DNA of 64,000 nucleotides from NCBI GenBank assembly GCA_000165345.1, contig CM000435.1:544001-608000 (forward strand), given 5' to 3'. Shown here in pieces: positions 32,103 to 55,441 of the stretch. The position numbers and the translations under genes were made by a program. The notes beneath the pieces are model-generated. The model searched no databases. It saw only the letters and a list, made by a program, of their open reading frames with translations, and had not been told where the DNA came from. Positions within the stretch are counted from its first letter, which is position 1. Each line of letters starts with the position of its first letter.

Positions 32103-35100
32103 ATGAGTTCAAATGAAGTTGAAGATAATCAAAATAGGAACAAAGAGAATGACTCATTCTGTATTTTAAGTAGAGAATACCTGCCTAAGGAAAGATGTTT
32201 AATGGAAACATGGAATAATGAAATTAGAATACGGATTCAGTATGAATTTACAAATCATCTTCCTGTATTATTTCTATCTGAAAATTCTGAACTAGTCAAA
32301 AGGTCTCAATCTTGTTTACAAAAAATTGTATTTGAATTACTTACAAGCGTATTGTTTTATTTGGATATTCCCTACATAACAGCGATAGAGTTTCTCGAAA
32401 ATTGTTCCATTGTATCTTATTTAAAAATATGCAAAATTTTGGGTTACGACTTTATTGGAAAGGATGAGCTTGATATTCAAGAAGTACCAACTGAATCTCT
32501 GAAAGATGAATTTAACGTATTCATTTCTGACCCAAGTAAAGCTATCGACATTAATTTGCCATCTTTTAGTTCTTTTGTTGAAGATCACATCACACCTCTA
32601 ATAATGGATGCTGTGTGGCTTATTCAAATGAGTGTACATAGCAACGAATCGAATAAAAACTCAATCTGGATAGAATTCATGTCTAGACTCTGTAGAGGAA
32701 ATATAACTTCGAGAGAAAGACCGCTTCCATCAATCCCAAAGAGCGTGAAACTCATTAGTATAAAAGATATTGTATCGTATCTTGATCTTGGAAAATCTGA
32801 TAACATGAAAATCACGGAATCGTTAATTTCTTCTAAATTTAAACTTCAGCAAAAGTATGTAAGAGATAGAACAAGACTATGTTTTACTGTAGATTCCTTT
32901 ACAACCCAAAGAGAGTGTTTAAATGGGTTTTCTATTCTGGGAGTACTAATTAAATACTTATTTGATCAAATAAATTTTTTTTCTGATCTAAATATTGATG
33001 AACCCACCTCTCAAATTATATATGAAAGAGATTATTCCAACAATCCTAAAGGCACAAATTATGTAAATGAGTATTCAGAAAATATAAACGATAAAAACAA
33101 TAGTCATACTAATTTAAACCTGTCAAATTATTTGATGAAATCCATTTGGAATATAATTCTAAGATATGATCTCTCAATACAAAGAAGTGTTGGATTAATT
33201 TTTGAAGTTTTTATTTCAATAATTTCGGGGTTCATTGATACAAAAAATAACTTAAATGATCTAGATACTCGACTATTTGTTCTATTAGATAAGTTACTTG
33301 CTATCTTCCCAGAGAAAATTGTTAGAAAGTCTTTCATTATTTTCATTGAACATATTTCCAATATTTGTAGCTCAAATAAGGGACCTAAGGATTCCGATAG
33401 CTTAAATACGGAAAATATTGGAAATTATGCTTACAGAACAAATCCATGGATTATTACTGATAAAAAAGGCTTTAAAGACATTCTTGATTTGCCATTCTTT
33501 GTGCTTACTTCTTTTTTAATTAAAAAAGGGTTTTTTGAACTAAGCGATTATTTCAGAGAGAAGTTGGTAGAATGGGATGATATTTTTTGGTCAGATTTTA
33601 AGGTAGATAAATATTCATTAAAAAACACAGATAATTTTTCAAACTTATTTGATGCTCAGGGTTTTTTCTTTCCTCCAAAAACATTGGAAAATATTAACAG
33701 CATTTATAAGTATTATCATTTATATTTTAATTCTCAATTAAGTAAAATAGAAGAGTCTGAAAAAGATTTTAACTTAGAACTGCTATTGAGAGAAATTTTG
33801 AGAAATGAAAGGTTTAACGATGAGATCAATTTTTCGAATATTTCGATTATTCTTTCAGAGTTAATACTTACTCCATCAATTTTATTTGCAAATGCATTTT
33901 TTGCTGATTATTTTTTGGAAGAAATTTGCGTTGATGAAGATGAAATATACTTTGTTTCCAAAATATCAAAGAATTCTGAAATAATTCAAGAAATAACTGA
34001 CTTTACGGGTATGCCATTTAGCATTATAAATTTATCAAGTAATATATTGAAAAAAAAAATAGAATTAATAATCAATGATATTGAAAGTAAAGTTAAAGAT
34101 AGTGAAAAGTCATCTAACCTGATATTGCAATACAAAAGGTTCTATTCATTAACTGAATGGATTAGCAAATATTGCAAATACCATTTATTTCAAAAACATC
34201 CAAGCTGCATTCCCATTTTTCTTGAGCTGCACTTGGTCTTTGTCAAAGAATTTAACAATGGGAAACTTTCTGAATTATTTGAGTCACAAGAATTGAGCTC
34301 AATAAATGGATACAAGTGCCCATCTGAACTATTGTTTGAAGTTTCATCTTGCATTATCTTCCCTGCGATTTCACTCCTACCCAAGAGTCCTTCAATTCCT
34401 GAAATGTTGAAAAACTCCATATTCGGTGAGATAGACATCAAGTATAGATACCAAATTTACAGAAGGTTAATGGTATTTAGTTACAATAGGTATCCTATGA
34501 ATTACCAATGGGTTAGTGTAAAAAAAATACTTTCAAAGTATTTGAAGGGAGTTACAAAAGATATAATAAATAACAAAAATGATAATAAACATTCAAACAG
34601 CATAAAAAGAAGACCACCTGTTCAAATCAGATTATTAATTTCCAATATTATTGGTTTATCTTACACAAATCCGCTTGCAGTTTGCGATACGATCATTAAT
34701 CAATGTAACAATTATGATAATATGATACCTCTTTTAATTGAGATACTTGGAAATAATATTGATGAAATATGTTTTGATGTAATGATATTTACAATAATAA
34801 ACTTTATTCTTTCAAGACCCACCTACATGATTGATTGTAGATCAAGTAATAGTGATTTAAATTGTTCAAGATTTGGCAATCGTGGAATTGCAAAATTCGT
34901 CGCATTATTGCTAACAAAAAGAAAAGTACCAAGGGAAATTTTAAAGAATTTTTTGCAAACTATTACTTATCGTATAGATGAAACTTTTTATGGTAATGAA
35001 TACTCTGTAAAAATTCCAAACAATTTCTTAGACATTTGTTTTTGGAAGCAATTATTAGAAATTGTATTATCAGCTCCAATACTTGACTTGTCTGTATTAA

Positions 35101-37472
35101 CTGGAAAGCAGATCCAAAGCCTTGCAGGAGGGCCATTATTATTTCAACTATTTCTTTCTCAACATGAAGAAGATAATTTCGGAGCAATGAACGAGCACTC
35201 TTTTTTTAATTCTTTATTAGACAATAATTCATATGCTAAACAAAATTGTGATTTATTTATTTCTATCTTAAAGAATGGAGAGATTCAAAGTAAGGAGGTT
35301 CTTTTTAGAATTGCAAAACTCAGGTCCGAAATATTATGGGATGTTCCAAGTAATTTAAACATGGATATTAAACTTTTAATTAACCTTTCTGACGAGCTGC
35401 ATTGGTGTTGCATACAAACAATTGAATTATTGAAAAGGTCATTTGATCCTGAATCATATAGAAACTTTATTTTGAATATTTCAAACTCAAGATATAGCTT
35501 TGAAGAAATTGTAACTCAGACCTTTTTATACCTAGATATACCAACTGCATGGTCTTTTCTTAGGAATGGAATTAGGAAATCTAACATAATTCAAGTTGAC
35601 AGAGAAATTTTGGTACAAGAAGATGGATTATTGGATATTGATCATGAGGCAATAAAGTGCATTAAAACTTACATTCTAAAGAAAAGTGAGATGACCTTTT
35701 TGAATAATGAGGTTTTCATGGATTTTTATATTTTATTCTGGTATCTTGATTTATCTGATATTTCTCTCCCATACCAACATTATTCAGAAAAACTATTTGA
35801 TTTATATTCTGAAATATTATATTACAAAGAAAACATAGACAGGATTTTGGCACAAAATATTGTAGATCATAAGACAGACACTTTTATTGAGAAGTGTAAG
35901 ATCGAATTTTTTTTGAATCCTAATAATATTAAACTCTTACCAAGTTATACTAAAAACAAAAATCATTTAACAAGGCAAGTTAGGGATGCAATTAAACCAT
36001 TTGAAAAGAGGCTCAGAAAGCTTTATAGTTGTTACAATGCATTAGCTTCAGAATATATTAAACTCTCTAAGAGAAGCGACTTTATAAGTCAATTCCTAGA
36101 TTCAGACCATGGAATTAATAGATTCAAAGATGAGTTAAATGAATCTTTAAAGTGCCATGATTTTTCTGAGCATGAAAAAAAAATTCAATCTTTTATGATT
36201 TGGATTTGTAAGGATTTTATTGCGCCTAGAGTAATTCACTCTGAAACTGATGCATTATTCACATATTTTTGGATCGAAAGGTTCGTTCTTGACGAAGAAA
36301 GAGGTATTTTTTCTTCTAATAAATACCTTATTGAATCATTTTTGATATTAACAACCAAGCATATTTCTTCCTTGATAAGGTCATCGACTCCTCGTGAATC
36401 TCAGCTTCTTGGCTTATTTTTTAAGGAGATATTCGCATATATTAAAAGATTTATTTCTAAATTTAGGTCAGGCATAAATGCTGATAATAACCAAAAAGGA
36501 GAAACAACGTTTAAAGTTTCTCCCAACAATATCCCAGTAACTGATTTAGATAGGCTCGAGTTTGAAACTGATACAAATGGAAAGAATTTAAACAACATTT
36601 TAGATAATAAAGATTCATTAATTGATGGTACAAAATGCAGCGAATCAATTGAAAATAAAGATTCTGATTGTTCAAAATTATTTGAAAAAAAATCATTAGA
36701 AAACTTTGACCAAAAAATGAGTTTAATTAACGAATCATCACAAGAAATAAAACTTGACTCTTCTATCTATGAGCCTAGTAAACTAGATGTGTTGGCAGAA
36801 AAAAATGAAAGCAATAACGGGCTAGAATATATTGAAATATTTAAGGGAAAAAGTTGTAATGAAATTGAGAGCTTGACTCAAAGAACAACTGATTCAATTC
36901 TGAACAATTTTCTCTACGAATGTGAAAGGAATATCATGATTTCCTTATCCCTTGGATTGGGACTATTATCAGAAAGATCACCTGAAGACCTCCCTGAATG
37001 GGCCCATACATTAAGCAGCGTTTGGATGTTATCAAGATTTTACGAATCATTTCCTATATCAGCAATAACAGGTGAATATTTACTAAAAGAGCTACCAAAC
37101 ATCCTTGAATATGCAACAAAAAGACACTGGAATGATTTGAATCTATCAATTACATCATTAATTTTGAAATTAAAACAATGCAGCCCAAATTGGATAAGAA
37201 AAAGAGATTTAAAAGACAAAAACTCAAAACAAAATGAATCCGCTCTTACTTTAAAAGTAGCCATAGAATCTACAAAGAAAAATAATTCTAGTTCATCTAA
37301 TTTGTACCCAGTAACTCCCAGTTCAAAGAATCAAGATGAAAAAATTAATAACAATTCATCACGGTCAGAATTTAAAAGACAAAGACTGAATGTTGACGAA
37401 TACTGCTTAAACAAAACTAGCCACTCTAACTCCGCAAATTCTATCAGAAGAGAAGAATATAGGAAAAAATAA
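32103..37472 (+). CDS. Large hypothetical protein (1789 aa), probably alpha-helical repeat
   Basis: Uninterrupted 5.4-kb ORF with an ATG start. No signal peptide. No motif I can assign. Confidence 0.5.
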   Translation: MSSNEVEDNQNRNKENDSFCILSREYLPKERCLMETWNNEIRIRIQYEFTNHLPVLFLSENSELVKRSQSCLQKIVFELLTSVLFYLDIPYITAIEFLENCSIVSYLKICKILGYDFIGKDELDIQEVPTESLKDEFNVFISDPSKAIDINLPSFSSFVEDHITPLIMDAVWLIQMSVHSNESNKNSIWIEFMSRLCRGNITSRERPLPSIPKSVKLISIKDIVSYLDLGKSDNMKITESLISSKFKLQQKYVRDRTRLCFTVDSFTTQRECLNGFSILGVLIKYLFDQINFFSDLNIDEPTSQIIYERDYSNNPKGTNYVNEYSENINDKNNSHTNLNLSNYLMKSIWNIILRYDLSIQRSVGLIFEVFISIISGFIDTKNNLNDLDTRLFVLLDKLLAIFPEKIVRKSFIIFIEHISNICSSNKGPKDSDSLNTENIGNYAYRTNPWIITDKKGFKDILDLPFFVLTSFLIKKGFFELSDYFREKLVEWDDIFWSDFKVDKYSLKNTDNFSNLFDAQGFFFPPKTLENINSIYKYYHLYFNSQLSKIEESEKDFNLELLLREILRNERFNDEINFSNISIILSELILTPSILFANAFFADYFLEEICVDEDEIYFVSKISKNSEIIQEITDFTGMPFSIINLSSNILKKKIELIINDIESKVKDSEKSSNLILQYKRFYSLTEWISKYCKYHLFQKHPSCIPIFLELHLVFVKEFNNGKLSELFESQELSSINGYKCPSELLFEVSSCIIFPAISLLPKSPSIPEMLKNSIFGEIDIKYRYQIYRRLMVFSYNRYPMNYQWVSVKKILSKYLKGVTKDIINNKNDNKHSNSIKRRPPVQIRLLISNIIGLSYTNPLAVCDTIINQCNNYDNMIPLLIEILGNNIDEICFDVMIFTIINFILSRPTYMIDCRSSNSDLNCSRFGNRGIAKFVALLLTKRKVPREILKNFLQTITYRIDETFYGNEYSVKIPNNFLDICFWKQLLEIVLSAPILDLSVLTGKQIQSLAGGPLLFQLFLSQHEEDNFGAMNEHSFFNSLLDNNSYAKQNCDLFISILKNGEIQSKEVLFRIAKLRSEILWDVPSNLNMDIKLLINLSDELHWCCIQTIELLKRSFDPESYRNFILNISNSRYSFEEIVTQTFLYLDIPTAWSFLRNGIRKSNIIQVDREILVQEDGLLDIDHEAIKCIKTYILKKSEMTFLNNEVFMDFYILFWYLDLSDISLPYQHYSEKLFDLYSEILYYKENIDRILAQNIVDHKTDTFIEKCKIEFFLNPNNIKLLPSYTKNKNHLTRQVRDAIKPFEKRLRKLYSCYNALASEYIKLSKRSDFISQFLDSDHGINRFKDELNESLKCHDFSEHEKKIQSFMIWICKDFIAPRVIHSETDALFTYFWIERFVLDEERGIFSSNKYLIESFLILTTKHISSLIRSSTPRESQLLGLFFKEIFAYIKRFISKFRSGINADNNQKGETTFKVSPNNIPVTDLDRLEFETDTNGKNLNNILDNKDSLIDGTKCSESIENKDSDCSKLFEKKSLENFDQKMSLINESSQEIKLDSSIYEPSKLDVLAEKNESNNGLEYIEIFKGKSCNEIESLTQRTTDSILNNFLYECERNIMISLSLGLGLLSERSPEDLPEWAHTLSSVWMLSRFYESFPISAITGEYLLKELPNILEYATKRHWNDLNLSITSLILKLKQCSPNWIRKRDLKDKNSKQNESALTLKVAIESTKKNNSSSSNLYPVTPSSKNQDEKINNNSSRSEFKRQRLNVDEYCLNKTSHSNSANSIRREEYRKK

Positions 37473-48277: not shown

Positions 48278-51200
48278 CTACCACTTTTGAGTGTTTAGTT
48301 TCCTAAATGGTGACGAATTGTTCTCCCTAGAAATTACTTCTTTCTTTTTATACAGGAAGTAGAAAACAGAAATTGAGAGAATAGCTAGGGAAATTAATAT
48401 AGAACATAAATGTTGGTTAACTTTCATTGGTCTTGAAAATATAAAATATTTTGATAGTGTGTCGCCTTGAGATTCTATTTTATTATTGTCTCTATCCTTG
48501 AAAATTATATTAATTAGGTGTTTTTGTCCATTGGAGTTAAATTCTAACAAAATAAAGAATGGTAAAATTGTATTCAAATCCGCAATAGAAGCTCTGGTGT
48601 CTCTGGTGATATTCACAATTTTTATTTCCCCCTGAAAACGATTTACAGTAAAATTAACCATATATTCATCTAATACTTGGCTTTTAATTTTGTAGGCGAC
48701 AAGTCTAGTATTTTCATATCCGAACCAAAATAAAATTTGTATCGGGAATTCAAAATAGTCTTTGGGGTTCAAAGGAACTATAATTTCAATATGGTGTGTA
48801 TCATCCAGCCAACCATGAGTAAATGTCGATTTGTTTGAAAAGAGTCGAGAACTTAGTGGTTCCATCAAAATTGGATGAAAGTGAACTGGTATAAACCTTT
48901 TTAACTTTCTTGAAGATTTAAATTGCATTTGAATAATAAAAGTAGTTTTGTTAATCTTTGGTAATATGTACATTGAATCTTGATCATAATAATTACTTAC
49001 AATTCCATTTTTTATTTTTGTAGATAGTTCACTACTTCTTGGAGCCATATTACAAGAAGGAAGTAAAAATGGGCTGTTAAGAATTGTTAAAGACCAAAAA
49101 GGAGTTGTGGTGTATATTTCTTTTAAAATTGGGTTATAGATTTCACAATTTATATTACTTATTGGAGAATTATAGTAAATATTGTTGAAAAATTTATTAA
49201 TAAAGTCGCCATCACTAAAATAAATAGAAAATGAAAATTGAGTATTTATATGCAACTTATCATACTTCTTGTTAACAATAATAAAATCATTTTCAGAAAA
49301 CTGGCCATTTAACGGTATTACTTTTAAGTTTATTTCTATTAGCTTTGATAAGCGCAGTTTAATATACTTTATTGAATTGCTCATTGGAATAACCAACAAC
49401 TCATTTTCTACCACTTTTACAGAATCATAACTTGATAATAATTCCCAAGTCGGAGCTACATCATATTCTGAAGTATTGTATTTCAAAGTGTTATTGTCGT
49501 TCCTATTCACATCAACCCAAATTAATCCATGATCATTCGAAATAATGGACGAATATTTCATCAAAACTACCCATAATTCAAAAGGATTAATTTTTTTATC
49601 AATGGATACGCATAATAATTGTTTATTTGAAGAAATATTTAAGTAGCTTGATAACTCTGATTGGATGCGTTCGCCACGAATAATAATAATAAGTGTCAAT
49701 GGAATATTCAGAATTTTTGAAAATTCCTCTTTAAGAAGAGATTCAATATCTTCAAGAAGCTTATTTACAACCACACAGAAGTTTAGTTTATCGGGAGTTG
49801 AATTTAATGCTTTCCATTTAATAGGGTTGAGGTGAAGCAAAGAACCTCCAAAGACCTCAAATTCATACTTTGTTATTTTATCTATAAAATTAATATTAGT
49901 TATATTTGATTCATTTACAAAAATATTATTTTCACTATGTTTAATACTGGCCTTAGAACTTAAACTAACACAAAAAGGTTGGGATCCAATGAATTTATTT
50001 GTATTTGAAAATATTTGAATTATGAAACATGAATCTCTATAATTTTCATAAAACTCATTTTTAGAGTCCGTTAGCTCCCATGATTTAATCTCTTCAATTA
50101 ATTTCAATGATTTAGTTTCTTTATTTTGATATAATAGTAATTGGCAGTTTGCATTCAAATTACTTTCTTCAAAAATTGCATCAATATATAAATTATCGTC
50201 TTCTTTTTTTATTAAGAATTCTTGAGTTATATTTTGAACTGGAATCAAATATAAATTAATTCCAAGACAATAATTTGGGTTTGGAAATAATCTGATACCC
50301 ATGGAATTAAAAAAAAATAATGAAAGTTTAATTGAATAGTCACCATATTTACTTAATTCTACAACAGTGAACTTCGGTTCAGATATAATTATAGGAGATA
50401 TAGTAACAAGACTTTCTGATCCCAATTTAAACCTATTTTCTTCATTGAAAATAACAACGCTTTTATTAGAGTTCCAAGTATCTATGTAAATTTGTTGCGA
50501 GTTATTCGCATATTCAATATCTAACTTGTTATTACTTTTAACTTCTACTTCCTTAGGTAGAATAATATAATATAGTGAGTCATTAATTATCCAAATTCCA
50601 TTTTCAACGGAATTAATTGCCTTAATAACACTAAGTTTTTGTGTTAATTCTAATTCAATATTCTTCTTATTGCCAAAACTGCAACTTAACCTTATATTCA
50701 AATAAGATGCTCCAATATTTATAGGGTGAATTAAAGCAATATAATCATGCATCGAAACATTACTATGCATATGGTCTTCAAAAAACGTATTATTCATCTT
50801 AAATCTGTCGATATAATTGAAGTCAATAAACCTTGATATACAGACTAGATCTGAATTTGGATTGCATTTATTATCTACAAAATTCTTTGAAATATTATTA
50901 AAACCATTCAAATTTTGGGAGATAGACCAATTAACTTTACATTTTGAAAACTCTGAAGGAAAATATTGGGAGTTGTGAAAGTTTAAAGTCTTATTTCTAT
51001 TACTATTCCAAGTTCTTATTGTATAAGCTTTTGGATACCCTAAATACAAATATTCAATTTCTGGTGAAAATAAGCTTATTTTGTCAGGAATATCAACATA
51101 AACATTAATTAGTTTAGAAAATATTAGTGCTTTAAAAATATTGGTGTTATTTTCATTAGTTAAAAAGCATTTTATTAATACTCTTTCTCTCCCTATTTCT

Positions 51201-54200
51201 CCGAGAGGTTCAATAACCAATTTTTTATTGTTTCTAATGAGTAAAATATCTTTATGGGCTTTGCTGTTTATTTTTTTTTCTAATTCGATATGCCAATCTA
51301 GTTTTAAACCTTTATATTTTGTAGGGCCACCCTTGAAACTAATGTGTAGTGGAGAACCGTATGGAAACAATGAAAACATATCTGTATTTGATTCAAGTTT
51401 AATTGATTCATATACTTTTAAGTTTAAAGAGTTTGAATATATATTTACACTGGAATTTGAATCCAATACTTTTGCAACTAATTCAATATCAATATTTTTT
51501 TTCTTTATCTCCATAATTTGGAATATTGTAGAGCTTAAATTTATTATTTCAATAGAAAAATCATTTAAGCTATTTTTTTTCTGTTTACTAAATTCTAATT
51601 CAGATTTACACGAAATGTTCTTTAATTTATAATCAATTTCAATTTTGAATTCAGTACTCTGCCAAGGTTCTAGAGCCATATCTTGTTCATTATACATTAT
51701 TACAACTAATATTGATCTTGAATTGTCATCAATTAGGCAATTTTCATTAATGCACGGCAAAGTGTTATCGATATTCTTATAATAGTCGACGTTATTGATA
51801 TATTCATAAATATTTTCAGAAATATACTTCCTAGGAACTTTAAAGTCATTTATAAAGCCAATATTTTGATCAGATACATTATAAGTAAAATAAATTGACC
51901 AAGGTAATAACTCACTTTCTTTATTCATATTCAAGTTGAATCTGTCCAACCAAACAAGATGCAATTTATTTAAATTACTAAATACCAATTTTTTCTTTAT
52001 TATATATTTTGGAAGAATCAATTGATCTTCAATATAGACATCTATTTTTTTGGTTTCATTTTCACCTCTTAAGAGTTGTTTTGAATCTAAGCAAAAAGGA
52101 AAAATATGTACTCTATTATGAAAATGATTAAATGAGTTGTTTTTAATTAAAAAGACGTCCTCTTCTTTCATCATATCATTACATAAACTATATTTTACTG
52201 CTGTTTTATCATCGAAAAAAATGTTAAAATTATTTGTTCCATATATTATTCCAAATTGGTGTTTGCCTTCGAGCAAATTCCATGATCCAATGGAGTTAAT
52301 TCCTTCATTCTCATCTTCAAATTGATGGTAATCCTCAAACTGCGCAGGCATATCCAACATTTGTGGAGAAATTAAGATAGGTGGCCTTGTAAAAATTCCC
52401 TTTGTAATAATGCTGAATCTATTCAAATTATCATCTAGATTATTTTCCTCGAAGTTTTCGTGGATGAACGCTTCAAATCTGATATTAACATCTTTCATAT
52501 AATATTCTGCTCCCAAGTGTATAGATACATCTATAATATTTTGATTAATCAGCTTATTTTCGTCCAAAAAATGTGTTGAGAATTCGCTAATATTTTCAAT
52601 TTCCCATTTTACTTTAAATCTGTTGAATGACAACAATAAGTTATTGTTCTTATCATATGCTAAAGAAATAAATCTATGTATTTTATTAGAATTGAAATGA
52701 AATATCATACAATCATCACTTCTCGTATTACATGTGTACTTTCCCATAATAGGAAACCGACTAACCCAAAACATATTAATATGGTCGATTGATTTACAAT
52801 GAACTTTTAACACAGACTCCATTCTATAAACTTCCGACTGGTATTCGTCGAAGATTGCCATTGTAAATTTAAAAAAACCAACCGCTAATTCGCCATTACA
52901 TTCCAATAAAAACTTGTTTGTTTCATCTAACTTAGAAATTCGAATTGAATTGTGATCATTAATTTCTTTTTGTGTACCAAAAAATTCTCTTTCCTCATTA
53001 TCTAACAACAAAAATAGTCTAAATTTATTAAATTCGATCAAACAATTTGTTTTGTTTTGATAGTCGTATAATCCACCTTGTATTAAAAGATTAATTTGAC
53101 TAGACTTCTCAATATAAAAATTATTTGAAGCAGTCTCTGATGATTCAAAATAACTCAGGACAATCTCATTTAATATAGGTACGAAAAAAATATCTTGAAA
53201 AATAAATATGGAAAGCCCAATATCGATAATTTTTCGTCTAATTGTTTTCGAGTTATAGTTAAATTCGATTCCAAATTCAATAAAGTTATCAAAAACCAAA
53301 TTTCCATGTTTCTTCAGCTCAATATTAATTTTTTGTCCATCTATATTCATTATTATGATATTAAAATCATAATTAGATGTAAGTTGGCTATAAGATACAA
53401 TTCCTAAATTATTCAAGATTAGCAGACAATCATTAATGCTCAAATCATTTGTATATTTTGTATTTGGTTGAAAGTCAAGTAGATTTGCCACCTTTACTAT
53501 TTCGCATGGATCATATAACTTTGTTATATCAAGAGTATCCAATTTATAAAATGAAAGATTATAATAAGATGGTTCAAATTGATTACCTAACAAATTATTG
53601 GAAACTCTTATAGGCTCAGCTTTGATTTCAACGGTTAACGAATTTTGTGATATTGAAGTATAAATGGTATTTTTATAAAGCTTTCCATTTAAAGAGGCCA
53701 TTTCTAAACTAAAACCATTAATATAAGAAACTAGAACAGGAATGTTTAAACCATAAACATTTTTAAGAGATTCGCAACTTAATTTATTTTTATTTTCATA
53801 GTATTGGCTTATTCCAATATCATATATAGTAACATTAAGTAATCCTGTATTATAGCCTGTCTTTAATAGTCCCGTGTGGAAATCAATCATTGCTATTGAC
53901 GGGTTGGATGAACAAAAAAAAAATGGTCCTTTTCCGCCTGTAATGTTTTCTCTTATATTGATTCTTTGTTCTCCAGGGTATAGAACAAGTGGTAGATTTG
54001 AAAAGAGAGTATCTATGTCTCTAACAATATTAATCTTTAACAGCGAGGTAATTTCTGTTAATTTGCCCTCCCCATTAGGTTTTGAATAGCTTGTGTCACC
54101 TATAGAGTCGAGAGTAACAACAAATTCGCTTAATCCCACTGAGTTACCTGTAATTTTTAAAAATCCACCAGTAGTTGAATTATTTTCATTATACTCAGTC

Positions 54201-55441
54201 TGGAATGGAGTAATATTTACCGAGTTACAACCTTTTTTGCAGATAAATCTGAATCTTGAGTTAATTGGAACGTGTAAGAACTCTCTCTTATAATTAAGCA
54301 ACTTTAATTGAAGAAAAATAACCTTATTCTCAGTAATCGTTAATTCGTTATTCTGCAAAGTTCGAACAAAAAAGCCGGACCTTTCAGCTAATTGTTCCCC
54401 TTCTATAAAATATAATTGAACAAATTCATCAAAATTAAAGTTATTTTGGGGAGGTAATAAACTAATGTCATCTTGAACAGCAAAAATAATTTCTTTAGGA
54501 AATGATATATATATTAAACTTGTGAAAAAACTTCCATCAACTCTTCTATCCATACAAGTAGTAGAAATGATTGATTCGGCTTCAATGTCATGATTGTTGT
54601 AATTTTCAACTATTATCTTATTGCCATCAAGTATTTGAGCTTGTGGTCCGATATTCCTGTCAATTTTACAATAATGAAATTCTTTTCTAAAAAAATTTGT
54701 AAAATCTGTTGTCCCTTCTTTCACTAAATGTATTGGATAAAGCGAACCAAATGGAGCCCTTCTGATGTATGGGATAATTTTAAATGGATCTTCTACATAT
54801 ATAGTAACTGATGAACCGATTAATGCATAATGCTCTTCAATAATTTTTACATGTACATTTACTGATCCAACTTTAGATCCAGTAACCAAAATTTGGCTTC
54901 CATAATTTTTCTCCGATATAATGTTATCATTTTCCAACTCCCAAACAATCCTTAGTTCATTCAATGATGTGAATGTGTTATTTTCACTGTCAAACCCAAT
55001 TGCATATAGGTTTTCAAGTGAGCCTAGCCTAATTCTTTTTGAACTGGTGCTGATTTTTATACTCTCAACTTTTGCAATGTGAATTTCACTACGTAAATTC
55101 TCTCCTGTATAAATATCCGATGCAATAACAGTAAAAACTCCTTTTAAGCGCATATGGTGCCATTTTGGATTTACATTAATAACATCCGTACAATTGTTCC
55201 CATACTCGTCGATTCTTACAACCGAGTGATTAACTCTTAAAAATTCATCTTCAAATTTCCAATTATGACAGCCATAACTTACTCTAATATCAATATTCGA
55301 CTTATTATTAAATGTCCAAGGTAAAAGTGCCAACGTAGGATCTATTTTATTTTTGGAATCAGAACTCACACATAAAAATGAGCTAATATAAAAAAAGATA
55401 ATCAAAAATAGTACAATATATTCCTTTTTAGGAAAGGCCAT
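48278..55441 (-). CDS. Giant type I transmembrane glycoprotein (2387 aa): signal peptide, about 2300-aa Cys/N-glycan-rich ectodomain, single TM, about 24-aa tail ending in Trp
   Basis: The N-terminus MAFPKKEYIVLFLIIFFYISSFLCVSSDS is a signal peptide. The C-terminus LCSILISLAILSISVFYFLYKKKEVISRENNSSPFRKLNTQKW is a TM plus a short basic tail. Many NxS/T sequons. The 7.2-kb ORF is uninterrupted. Confidence 0.6.
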   Translation of the reverse strand: MAFPKKEYIVLFLIIFFYISSFLCVSSDSKNKIDPTLALLPWTFNNKSNIDIRVSYGCHNWKFEDEFLRVNHSVVRIDEYGNNCTDVINVNPKWHHMRLKGVFTVIASDIYTGENLRSEIHIAKVESIKISTSSKRIRLGSLENLYAIGFDSENNTFTSLNELRIVWELENDNIISEKNYGSQILVTGSKVGSVNVHVKIIEEHYALIGSSVTIYVEDPFKIIPYIRRAPFGSLYPIHLVKEGTTDFTNFFRKEFHYCKIDRNIGPQAQILDGNKIIVENYNNHDIEAESIISTTCMDRRVDGSFFTSLIYISFPKEIIFAVQDDISLLPPQNNFNFDEFVQLYFIEGEQLAERSGFFVRTLQNNELTITENKVIFLQLKLLNYKREFLHVPINSRFRFICKKGCNSVNITPFQTEYNENNSTTGGFLKITGNSVGLSEFVVTLDSIGDTSYSKPNGEGKLTEITSLLKINIVRDIDTLFSNLPLVLYPGEQRINIRENITGGKGPFFFCSSNPSIAMIDFHTGLLKTGYNTGLLNVTIYDIGISQYYENKNKLSCESLKNVYGLNIPVLVSYINGFSLEMASLNGKLYKNTIYTSISQNSLTVEIKAEPIRVSNNLLGNQFEPSYYNLSFYKLDTLDITKLYDPCEIVKVANLLDFQPNTKYTNDLSINDCLLILNNLGIVSYSQLTSNYDFNIIIMNIDGQKINIELKKHGNLVFDNFIEFGIEFNYNSKTIRRKIIDIGLSIFIFQDIFFVPILNEIVLSYFESSETASNNFYIEKSSQINLLIQGGLYDYQNKTNCLIEFNKFRLFLLLDNEEREFFGTQKEINDHNSIRISKLDETNKFLLECNGELAVGFFKFTMAIFDEYQSEVYRMESVLKVHCKSIDHINMFWVSRFPIMGKYTCNTRSDDCMIFHFNSNKIHRFISLAYDKNNNLLLSFNRFKVKWEIENISEFSTHFLDENKLINQNIIDVSIHLGAEYYMKDVNIRFEAFIHENFEENNLDDNLNRFSIITKGIFTRPPILISPQMLDMPAQFEDYHQFEDENEGINSIGSWNLLEGKHQFGIIYGTNNFNIFFDDKTAVKYSLCNDMMKEEDVFLIKNNSFNHFHNRVHIFPFCLDSKQLLRGENETKKIDVYIEDQLILPKYIIKKKLVFSNLNKLHLVWLDRFNLNMNKESELLPWSIYFTYNVSDQNIGFINDFKVPRKYISENIYEYINNVDYYKNIDNTLPCINENCLIDDNSRSILVVIMYNEQDMALEPWQSTEFKIEIDYKLKNISCKSELEFSKQKKNSLNDFSIEIINLSSTIFQIMEIKKKNIDIELVAKVLDSNSSVNIYSNSLNLKVYESIKLESNTDMFSLFPYGSPLHISFKGGPTKYKGLKLDWHIELEKKINSKAHKDILLIRNNKKLVIEPLGEIGRERVLIKCFLTNENNTNIFKALIFSKLINVYVDIPDKISLFSPEIEYLYLGYPKAYTIRTWNSNRNKTLNFHNSQYFPSEFSKCKVNWSISQNLNGFNNISKNFVDNKCNPNSDLVCISRFIDFNYIDRFKMNNTFFEDHMHSNVSMHDYIALIHPINIGASYLNIRLSCSFGNKKNIELELTQKLSVIKAINSVENGIWIINDSLYYIILPKEVEVKSNNKLDIEYANNSQQIYIDTWNSNKSVVIFNEENRFKLGSESLVTISPIIISEPKFTVVELSKYGDYSIKLSLFFFNSMGIRLFPNPNYCLGINLYLIPVQNITQEFLIKKEDDNLYIDAIFEESNLNANCQLLLYQNKETKSLKLIEEIKSWELTDSKNEFYENYRDSCFIIQIFSNTNKFIGSQPFCVSLSSKASIKHSENNIFVNESNITNINFIDKITKYEFEVFGGSLLHLNPIKWKALNSTPDKLNFCVVVNKLLEDIESLLKEEFSKILNIPLTLIIIIRGERIQSELSSYLNISSNKQLLCVSIDKKINPFELWVVLMKYSSIISNDHGLIWVDVNRNDNNTLKYNTSEYDVAPTWELLSSYDSVKVVENELLVIPMSNSIKYIKLRLSKLIEINLKVIPLNGQFSENDFIIVNKKYDKLHINTQFSFSIYFSDGDFINKFFNNIYYNSPISNINCEIYNPILKEIYTTTPFWSLTILNSPFLLPSCNMAPRSSELSTKIKNGIVSNYYDQDSMYILPKINKTTFIIQMQFKSSRKLKRFIPVHFHPILMEPLSSRLFSNKSTFTHGWLDDTHHIEIIVPLNPKDYFEFPIQILFWFGYENTRLVAYKIKSQVLDEYMVNFTVNRFQGEIKIVNITRDTRASIADLNTILPFFILLEFNSNGQKHLINIIFKDRDNNKIESQGDTLSKYFIFSRPMKVNQHLCSILISLAILSISVFYFLYKKKEVISRENNSSPFRKLNTQKW

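Follow-up and report, generated by a model that had tools for sequence, protein, structure and literature searches.

The nuclear pore membrane protein NUP210 (gp210) carries immunoglobulin (Ig)-like domains that project into the lumen of the nuclear envelope, and its transmembrane (TM) segment plus C-terminal helix suffices for recruitment to the pore; in human and Xenopus pores, eight NUP210 copies per spoke form a lumenal ring (PMC13242641, PMC7264284, PMC2289754). In Xenopus extracts, pore dilation is blocked when the gp210 tail is interfered with (PMC2173024), and experiments in Dictyostelium placed Nup210-mNeon at nuclear pores (PMC11507795). Gp210 was entered for the apicomplexans by Neumann et al. 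(2010, PLoS One 5:e13241, PMC2951903), who reported it as present in Cryptosporidium, from C. parvum sequence. We analysed a 64,000-nucleotide stretch of C. parvum DNA (GenBank assembly GCA_000165345.1, contig CM000435.1, positions 544,001 to 608,000 of the forward strand), referred to below as the window. A protein of 2387 amino acids (aa) encoded on its minus strand is very probably the Cryptosporidium orthologue of NUP210.

The whole window is AT-rich (~25-35% GC), with long, uninterrupted and densely packed open reading frames (ORFs). The ORF list and re-translation showed that 48278..55441 on the minus strand is a single ATG-to-stop ORF of 2387 aa, stop codon included. In-frame stops lie 5' of the start ATG, and M1 and the N-terminus of the protein are kept in 10 orthologues. 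Because it is 7.1 kb long in DNA of ~28% GC and has orthologues across the genus, the ORF is not a product of chance. An exact-sequence look-up identified the protein as EAK90273.1 of C. parvum Iowa II, annotated in its record as 'hypothetical protein / large membrane protein with signal peptide and transmembrane domain near carboxy terminus'.

The Kyte-Doolittle method gave no more than two strong peaks of hydrophobicity, at aa 9-27 (2.47) and aa 2345-2363 (2.45), and the third-best peak (1.97) lies within a predicted beta region. The layout given in a preliminary description of the stretch, which did not state the strand, is therefore real: a 2387-aa membrane protein with a signal-like segment, one TM and a short tail lacking an acidic stretch. 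The tail, put there at ~24 residues, measures 23 aa; it starts with KKK, ends in W and is basic (7 K/R versus 2 D/E), and type I topology fits because this positive charge follows the TM. The TM itself is poorly conserved in sequence, yet a hydrophobic segment is found there in all orthologues.

Two compositional claims of the same description did not stand. It had called the ectodomain Cys-rich, and the 35 Cys residues (1.47%) are an ordinary content; 30 of them recur in 10 or more of the 11 species, a pattern consistent with structural disulfides. The ectodomain had also been called sequon-rich, and the C. parvum protein holds 40 N-x-S/T sequons versus 32 expected from composition, with orthologues at chance level (26-44 versus 28-33 expected) and only N46 and N1646 conserved. 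Since sequons occur at chance frequency, the label 'glycoprotein' is an assumption. The Trp-terminated tail was correctly described for C. parvum, but the genus as a whole does not keep the terminal Trp: C. andersoni ends in ...IKC, with Cys as the last residue, and the tails of C. ryanae and a close relative (P0008 and P0009) run ~10 aa past the C. parvum end (…SPFRKLNSRKLQVSISDTKVI). The C-terminal Trp is thus lineage-restricted.

The main parts of the protein are as follows.

48278..55441, minus strand: complete coding sequence of the very probable NUP210/gp210 orthologue (ORF list, translation, exact-sequence look-up)
55361..55441, minus strand: signal-peptide-like N-terminus, aa 1-27 (MAFPKKEYIVLFLIIFFYISSFLCVSS); hydropathy 2.47, AlphaFold2 (AF2) helix 7-20 with low predicted local distance difference test (pLDDT) score
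50279..55375, minus strand: predicted lumenal Ig-like array, aa 23-1721, collinear with NUP210 from Ig1 to the start of Pfam 'Ig15' (hhalign, AF2 and Foldseek)
48410..50278, minus strand: predicted C-terminal lumenal region, aa 1722-2344 (623 aa), beta-rich and unalignable to NUP210
48350..48409, minus strand: predicted TM helix, aa 2345-2364 (LCSILISLAILSISVFYFLY); hydropathy 2.45, AF2 long helix at local positions 1139-1179
48281..48349, minus strand: 23-aa basic tail, aa 2365-2387 (KKKEVISRENNSSPFRKLNTQKW), predicted to face the pore or cytoplasm

Homology to NUP210

A Pfam scan with a threshold of E<=10 placed the NUP210 Ig-like domains 1 and 2 at aa 38-173 of the protein. The second-domain model, Ig_NUP210_2nd (PF22969), scored 31.5 bits, above its gathering threshold (GA) of 27. 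Both NUP210 models were matched in 11/11 orthologues, with a best E-value of 2.3e-7 for PF22967, the first-domain model. Apart from the NUP210 Ig domains, the scan of the 2387-aa protein returned Big_2 and two chance DUF matches, and nothing else. In a phmmer search of PDB sequences, human NUP210 (7r5j) was matched at E=4.9e-4 over aa 29-173, with aa 24-165 in the alignment to the human chain.

Orthologues from ten other Cryptosporidium species are ~2330-2400 aa long and 30-96% identical to the C. parvum protein, and several of them already bear the name 'NUP210 Ig-like domain-containing protein' or 'putative nucleoporin'. With a genus profile built from the 11 sequences, the E-value was 2.8e-15 for Dictyostelium Nup210 (9hcj) and 1.1e-8 for human NUP210. 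Further weak collinear stretches were seen with this profile, e.g. aa 490-541 against 494-543 of Dictyostelium Nup210. A hidden Markov model (HMM) of aa 1-1100 was then run against 1.84 billion cluster representatives at E<=1e-3, and 199 proteins matched. The matches from outside Cryptosporidium were mostly 1700-2000 aa long and were matched at their N-termini, and NUP210 Pfam domains were present in 21/21 relatives sampled. Named relatives include 'nucleoporin 210' of Heterostelium and 'nuclear pore membrane glycoprotein 210-like' of scallop, and two come from the alveolate Amoebophrya. One C-terminal TM followed by a short tail was also found in 42 full-length relatives.

The extent of the homology was given by profile-profile comparison (hhalign) of the Cryptosporidium profile with an alignment of 35 full-length relatives. 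The best result was one collinear alignment of 1289 columns (probability 100%, E=1.4e-48) that joins aa 23-1721 to positions 20-1417 of the reference. It begins directly after the signal-like segment, at a conserved LLPW/LLPY start. Off-diagonal alignments of one Ig domain to another reached ~1e-13 at best, at probabilities of 95-98%. The C-half profile alone also landed collinearly, with aa ~1303-1720 aligned to HMM positions 1006-1367 (probability 96%, E=3e-9).

Structure prediction of the N-half (aa 1-1200) gave a string of beta-sandwiches. In this AF2 model the mean pLDDT was 66, with values mostly of 70-90 over aa 30-1015. When this half was compared with the PDB by Foldseek, 480 chains matched at E<=1e-3; human NUP210 (7r5k_10) was first at 3.8e-38 and Dictyostelium Nup210 (9hcj_10) second at 5.6e-38. 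Both chains come from in-situ pore structures, and the two alignments span ~1120-1134 columns. The third match was a generic Ig array at 1.2e-17, 20 orders of magnitude behind NUP210. The C-half model is poor (mean pLDDT 47), and its Foldseek result, with human NUP210 narrowly first at 8e-17 and Dictyostelium second, is weakly supportive given that score.

Read along the chain, the protein has a signal-like segment, ~1700 residues of Ig-like domains collinear with Ig1 to ~Ig14/15, a 623-residue beta-rich region, a TM and a basic tail. The preliminary description had offered gp210 as one of two parallels in layout; the Pfam, profile, hhalign and Foldseek results turn that parallel into demonstrable homology, and all the homology that could be detected is to NUP210.

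Domain map, membrane-proximal region and tail motif

Domain limits were obtained by projecting the Pfam domains of the reference onto the Cryptosporidium protein. They are listed below, preceded by the features located by other means and followed by the Cryptosporidium-specific insertions in the collinear part, which come to about 260 aa in all.

54815..55351, minus strand: NUP210 Ig-like domains 1-2, aa 31-209, the most conserved part (TSSKRIRLGSLENLYAIGFD...; Pfam, 7r5j alignment, conservation profile)
53777..53989, minus strand: BIG2-type Ig domain, aa 485-555 (GGKGPFFFCSSNPSIAMIDFHTGLLKT...; weak Pfam Big_2 match at aa 507-539, collinear Dictyostelium stretch)
49511..49873, minus strand: alpha/beta module, aa ~1857-1977, predicted strand-helix repeats (AF2 C-half model)
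48293..48313, minus strand: tail motif S-P-F-R-K-L-N, aa 2377-2383 (SPFRK invariant in 11/11 Cryptosporidium species)
Ig1: aa 31-123
Ig2: aa 132-209
Ig3: aa 218-314
Ig4: aa 326-455
Ig6: aa 559-709
Ig7: aa 754-883
Ig9: aa 1024-1154
BIG2-type domain: aa 1345-1422
Pfam 'Ig15': start at aa 1686
Insertions, N-terminal part: aa 327-365, 621-664, 677-694, 715-737 and 758-772
Insertions, continued: aa 1044-1060, 1167-1208, 1211-1238, 1514-1533 and 1538-1552

The C. parvum protein is ~25% longer than canonical NUP210. The extra length is made up of helical insertions in Ig4 and Ig6-7 and of an enlarged membrane-proximal lumenal region. The insertions in Ig4 and Ig6-7 (region 53456..54463 of the minus strand, aa 327-662, and beyond) coincide with the AF2 helices H337-355, H639-679 and H759-767. 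Helical inserts of this kind decorate the Cryptosporidium lumenal array and are absent from the scallop reference.

Toward the membrane the alignment to NUP210 ends. No NUP210 homology was found for aa 1700-2387 by hhalign, whether run in local, low-mact or global mode (E=0.3, equal to the reversed-sequence control), and hmmsearch of the same residues against 146 relatives returned no match and no relative that bridges the region. The stretch aa 1722-2344 is either lineage-specific or highly diverged. Its alpha/beta module is the best-predicted piece of the C-half, moderately confident at pLDDT ~62-84, and has a non-Ig pattern of strands (E) and helices (H): E699-706, H712-724, E731-734, H737-747, E753-760 and H766-776 in the local numbering of the C-half model. 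The module is kept within the genus, with W1876, P1883, W1957, G1972 and W1975 invariant. A search with aa 1850-1985 gave no significant PDB profile match (best E=0.012, an esterase) and no Pfam match. No such module is seen in canonical NUP210.

The tail motif is the other conserved C-terminal element. The invariant alignment columns are S2377, P2378, F2379, R2380 and K2381. The consensus of proline-directed kinases is S/T-P-x-K/R, which S-P-x-R fits. Among the full-length relatives with a C-terminal TM (n=42), the pattern [ST]-P-x(0,1)-[FYW]-x(0,2)-[RK] was found in 15 tails, compared with 3.6±1.8 after shuffling, and 0 of 1000 shuffles reached 15. Exact [ST]PFRK occurred twice in 155,736 residues of relatives versus 0.11 expected. 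Both occurrences sit in Amoebophrya NUP210 tails (YESPFRKADE and YDTPFRKADE; aa 2287-2291 of P0043 and aa 2110-2114 of P0053). This sharing provides independent C-terminal support for orthology with the alveolate NUP210s, and S/T-P-F-R-K may represent a short linear motif or a phosphosite of ancient origin in NUP210 tails. The mitotic cyclin B-cdc2 site of mammalian gp210 is a single Ser1880-Pro, at a distance of seven residues from the C-terminus (PMC544869).

Looser S/T-P-F-R/K versions were also observed in the tails of further relatives, Heterostelium nucleoporin 210 among them (P0026 aa 1814-1817, P0091 aa 1907-1910).

Alternative readings and proposed role

Several points weigh against identifying the protein as NUP210. 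Identity is only ~15% over the aligned part (186/1259 columns), and in the C. parvum protein Ig_NUP210_1st (PF22967) reached 22.6 bits (E=1.2e-4), under its GA of 27. The tail-motif pattern was set post hoc on related sequences, and their kinship affects the enrichment test. The literature searched held no localisation, interaction or expression data on the C. parvum protein or on an apicomplexan NUP210, and nothing under the accessions EAK90273 and CPATCC_003441; gp210/NUP210 is unmentioned in the recent papers on Toxoplasma and Plasmodium nuclear pore complexes. Plasmodium is reportedly without detectable GP210 (PMC6062611), so apicomplexan pores do not strictly require it. The Plasmodium report would also suit a NUP210-derived protein that is no longer at the pore and acts in the lumen of the endoplasmic reticulum (ER) or nuclear envelope, e.g. 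in ER homeostasis or secretory-pathway scaffolding. Such a shift could accommodate the divergence of aa 1722-2344 beyond recognition, with a non-Ig module in their midst, and the tail cut to 23 aa versus 58 aa in rat gp210 (PMC2289754); the mammalian lumenal domain alone suffices for a differentiation function (PMC4362455). We consider this departure from the pore unlikely. The TM and the genus-invariant tail motif have been retained, and other alveolate NUP210 tails have this motif as well, which speaks for a conserved partner on the cytosolic or pore side. The gp210 TM alone is enough to direct sorting to the membrane of the pore (PMC2289754), and Ig1-2, which are used in ring contacts, are the most conserved part of the chain.

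Ancestry itself could be questioned, as Ig arrays match promiscuously: 480 PDB chains were returned by Foldseek, off-diagonal hhalign probabilities were as high as 95-98%, and the C-terminal third is unassignable. An unrelated Ig array that came to resemble NUP210 by convergence is, however, extremely improbable. It is contradicted by the collinearity, a single alignment of 1289 columns at E=1.4e-48 versus ~1e-13 off the diagonal, and by the family-specific Pfam models for domains 1 and 2, which match at the right positions. NUP210 chains outrank generic Ig arrays by 20 orders of magnitude in Foldseek, the whole-library search yielded only NUP210s outside the genus (21/21 sampled), and topology and tail motif are shared with NUP210 relatives. 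The second parallel of the preliminary description, a zoite surface or micronemal adhesin whose Trp-containing tail would link it to the motility machinery, as in the TRAP/MIC2 family, has the layout in its favour (signal peptide, large ectodomain, single TM and, in C. parvum, a short tail with W at its end) and is highly improbable. No TSR, vWA, EGF, Apple or other adhesive domain was found by Pfam at E<=10, the tail is basic rather than acidic, and the terminal W is lost or displaced in C. andersoni and two other species. With all detectable homology pointing to NUP210, the homology evidence effectively refutes the adhesin.

If the protein is the NUP210 orthologue, its role may be sketched by analogy with vertebrate and Dictyostelium NUP210. 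The signal peptide would insert the chain into the ER, from which the protein would diffuse to the pore membrane and concentrate there. The Ig array in the perinuclear space would oligomerise into a lumenal ring around each pore, possibly an enlarged one, that would help to stabilise the curved membrane of the pore or to space it. The TM and short tail would reach the pore side and contact the scaffold, and SPFRK might serve as a docking site, a proline-directed phosphorylation site or both, as the counterpart of mammalian Ser1880-Pro.

A broader proposal joins these elements, and we put it forward as a possibility that is rather unlikely to hold in full. S/T-P-F-R-K, to which the S/T-P-aromatic(-basic) motifs of amoebozoan, plant-like and animal tails, Ser1880-Pro included, are related, would be an ancient motif that docks NUP210 to a pore-side partner and is switched by proline-directed phosphorylation of the cyclin-dependent kinase (CDK) type. 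The 23-residue tail would be its minimal natural version, and the lumenal ring would have received a lineage-specific addition in the form of the expanded membrane-proximal region with the alpha/beta module. If this were true, the minimal Cryptosporidium tail would make the partner of the NUP210 tail directly testable.

The identification rediscovers, correctly, a protein of a known family whose annotation in the C. parvum record is still poor. The preliminary description had listed the protein as of unknown function, overlooking the Gp210 assignment of Neumann et al. (2010) and the orthologues already named NUP210 or nucleoporin. The short C. hominis candidate of that study is probably the 257-aa fragment XP_666474.1, which falls in the same 90% cluster; the equivalence is inferred. 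Because Gp210 was inferred for the genus in 2010, the conceptual gain is small. What is added here is the extent of the homology (aa 23-1721), the insertion sites, the unassignable 623 residues with their alpha/beta module, and the conserved tail motif. The C. parvum gene labelled 'hypothetical / large membrane protein' can be annotated NUP210. On this assignment Cryptosporidium gains a bona fide nuclear-pore membrane anchor, in contrast to Plasmodium, where GP210 is reportedly undetectable, and the gene lends itself to tagging as a marker of the nuclear envelope and pores. Of modest further interest are the ~25% enlargement, the unalignable membrane-proximal third and the short SPFRK tail, a possible aid in finding the binder of the NUP210 tail.

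Neighbouring genes and comparison with known systems

Four other ORFs of the window were considered.

12724..19395, minus strand: 2223-aa ORF with a single N-terminal hydrophobic segment, aa 8-26
32103..37472, plus strand: 1789-aa ORF with Tho2/Thoc2 domains, THO complex subunit 2 (nuclear mRNA export)
56556..57137, minus strand: 193-aa ORF with an alpha/beta-hydrolase match (Hydrolase_4/Abhydrolase_1), 10 nucleotides downstream of the 739-aa ORF
57148..59367, minus strand: 739-aa ORF without a Pfam match

The preliminary description had paired the 2223-aa protein with the 2387-aa one as two giant lumenal or extracellular proteins. That pairing is unfounded: BLASTP between the two gave chance matches only, so a link was rejected, and the 2223-aa protein carries no NUP210 signal. 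It matched no Pfam domain and no sequence in the PDB, and its orthologues are found in Cryptosporidium only (named 'large secreted protein, signal peptide' in C. felis). The 193-aa and 739-aa ORFs may belong to a single gene that is interrupted by a short intron, a frameshift or a stop codon. The THO2 gene lies ~11 kb from the NUP210 gene. As eukaryotic gene order is not operonic, this proximity is probably coincidental.

Among known systems, the TRAP/MIC2 family resembles the Cryptosporidium protein in being type I with a short Trp-containing tail; unlike that family, the Cryptosporidium protein lacks TSR and vWA domains, has a basic tail and an unconserved Trp, and showed no detected homology to it. 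Fungal Pom152 has Ig-like domains in the nuclear-envelope lumen, where it forms the pore lumenal ring, in a domain order that differs from that of NUP210 (PMC13242641). Its TM segment or segments are N-terminal and its lumenal repeats C-terminal, the opposite of the Cryptosporidium order, and it was not among the sequence or structure matches listed.

Vertebrate NUP210/gp210 (human 7R5J/7R5K) shares the signal peptide, the lumenal Ig-like array, the single C-terminal TM and the short pore-facing tail, and it is the best structural match for both halves of the Cryptosporidium protein. The mammalian proteins also have a Ser/Thr-Pro motif near the C-terminus (Ser1880-Pro), and Xenopus GP210 has 1898 aa with 15 predicted Ig-like domains. 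The Cryptosporidium protein differs from the vertebrate ones in its length (2387 aa versus about 1890), its tail (23 aa versus 58), the partly helical insertions in the collinear part, and the 623 unalignable membrane-proximal residues where the reference has ~390. Dictyostelium discoideum Nup210 (9HCJ chain 10) is the best profile match among solved structures and the second Foldseek match for both halves. It is shorter (1916 aa), and a plain profile HMM aligns only its Ig1-2 and BIG2-type domain.

The Amoebophrya proteins (Syndiniales, Alveolata; P0043 and P0053) differ in having much longer tails, with the motif 49-62 residues from the C-terminus, and C-terminal lumenal parts that are unalignable to the Cryptosporidium protein. 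Like the latter they are elongated (2348 and 2158 aa) and carry [S/T]-P-F-R-K in the tail, and P0043 has a long collinear N-terminal match over profile positions 119-546.

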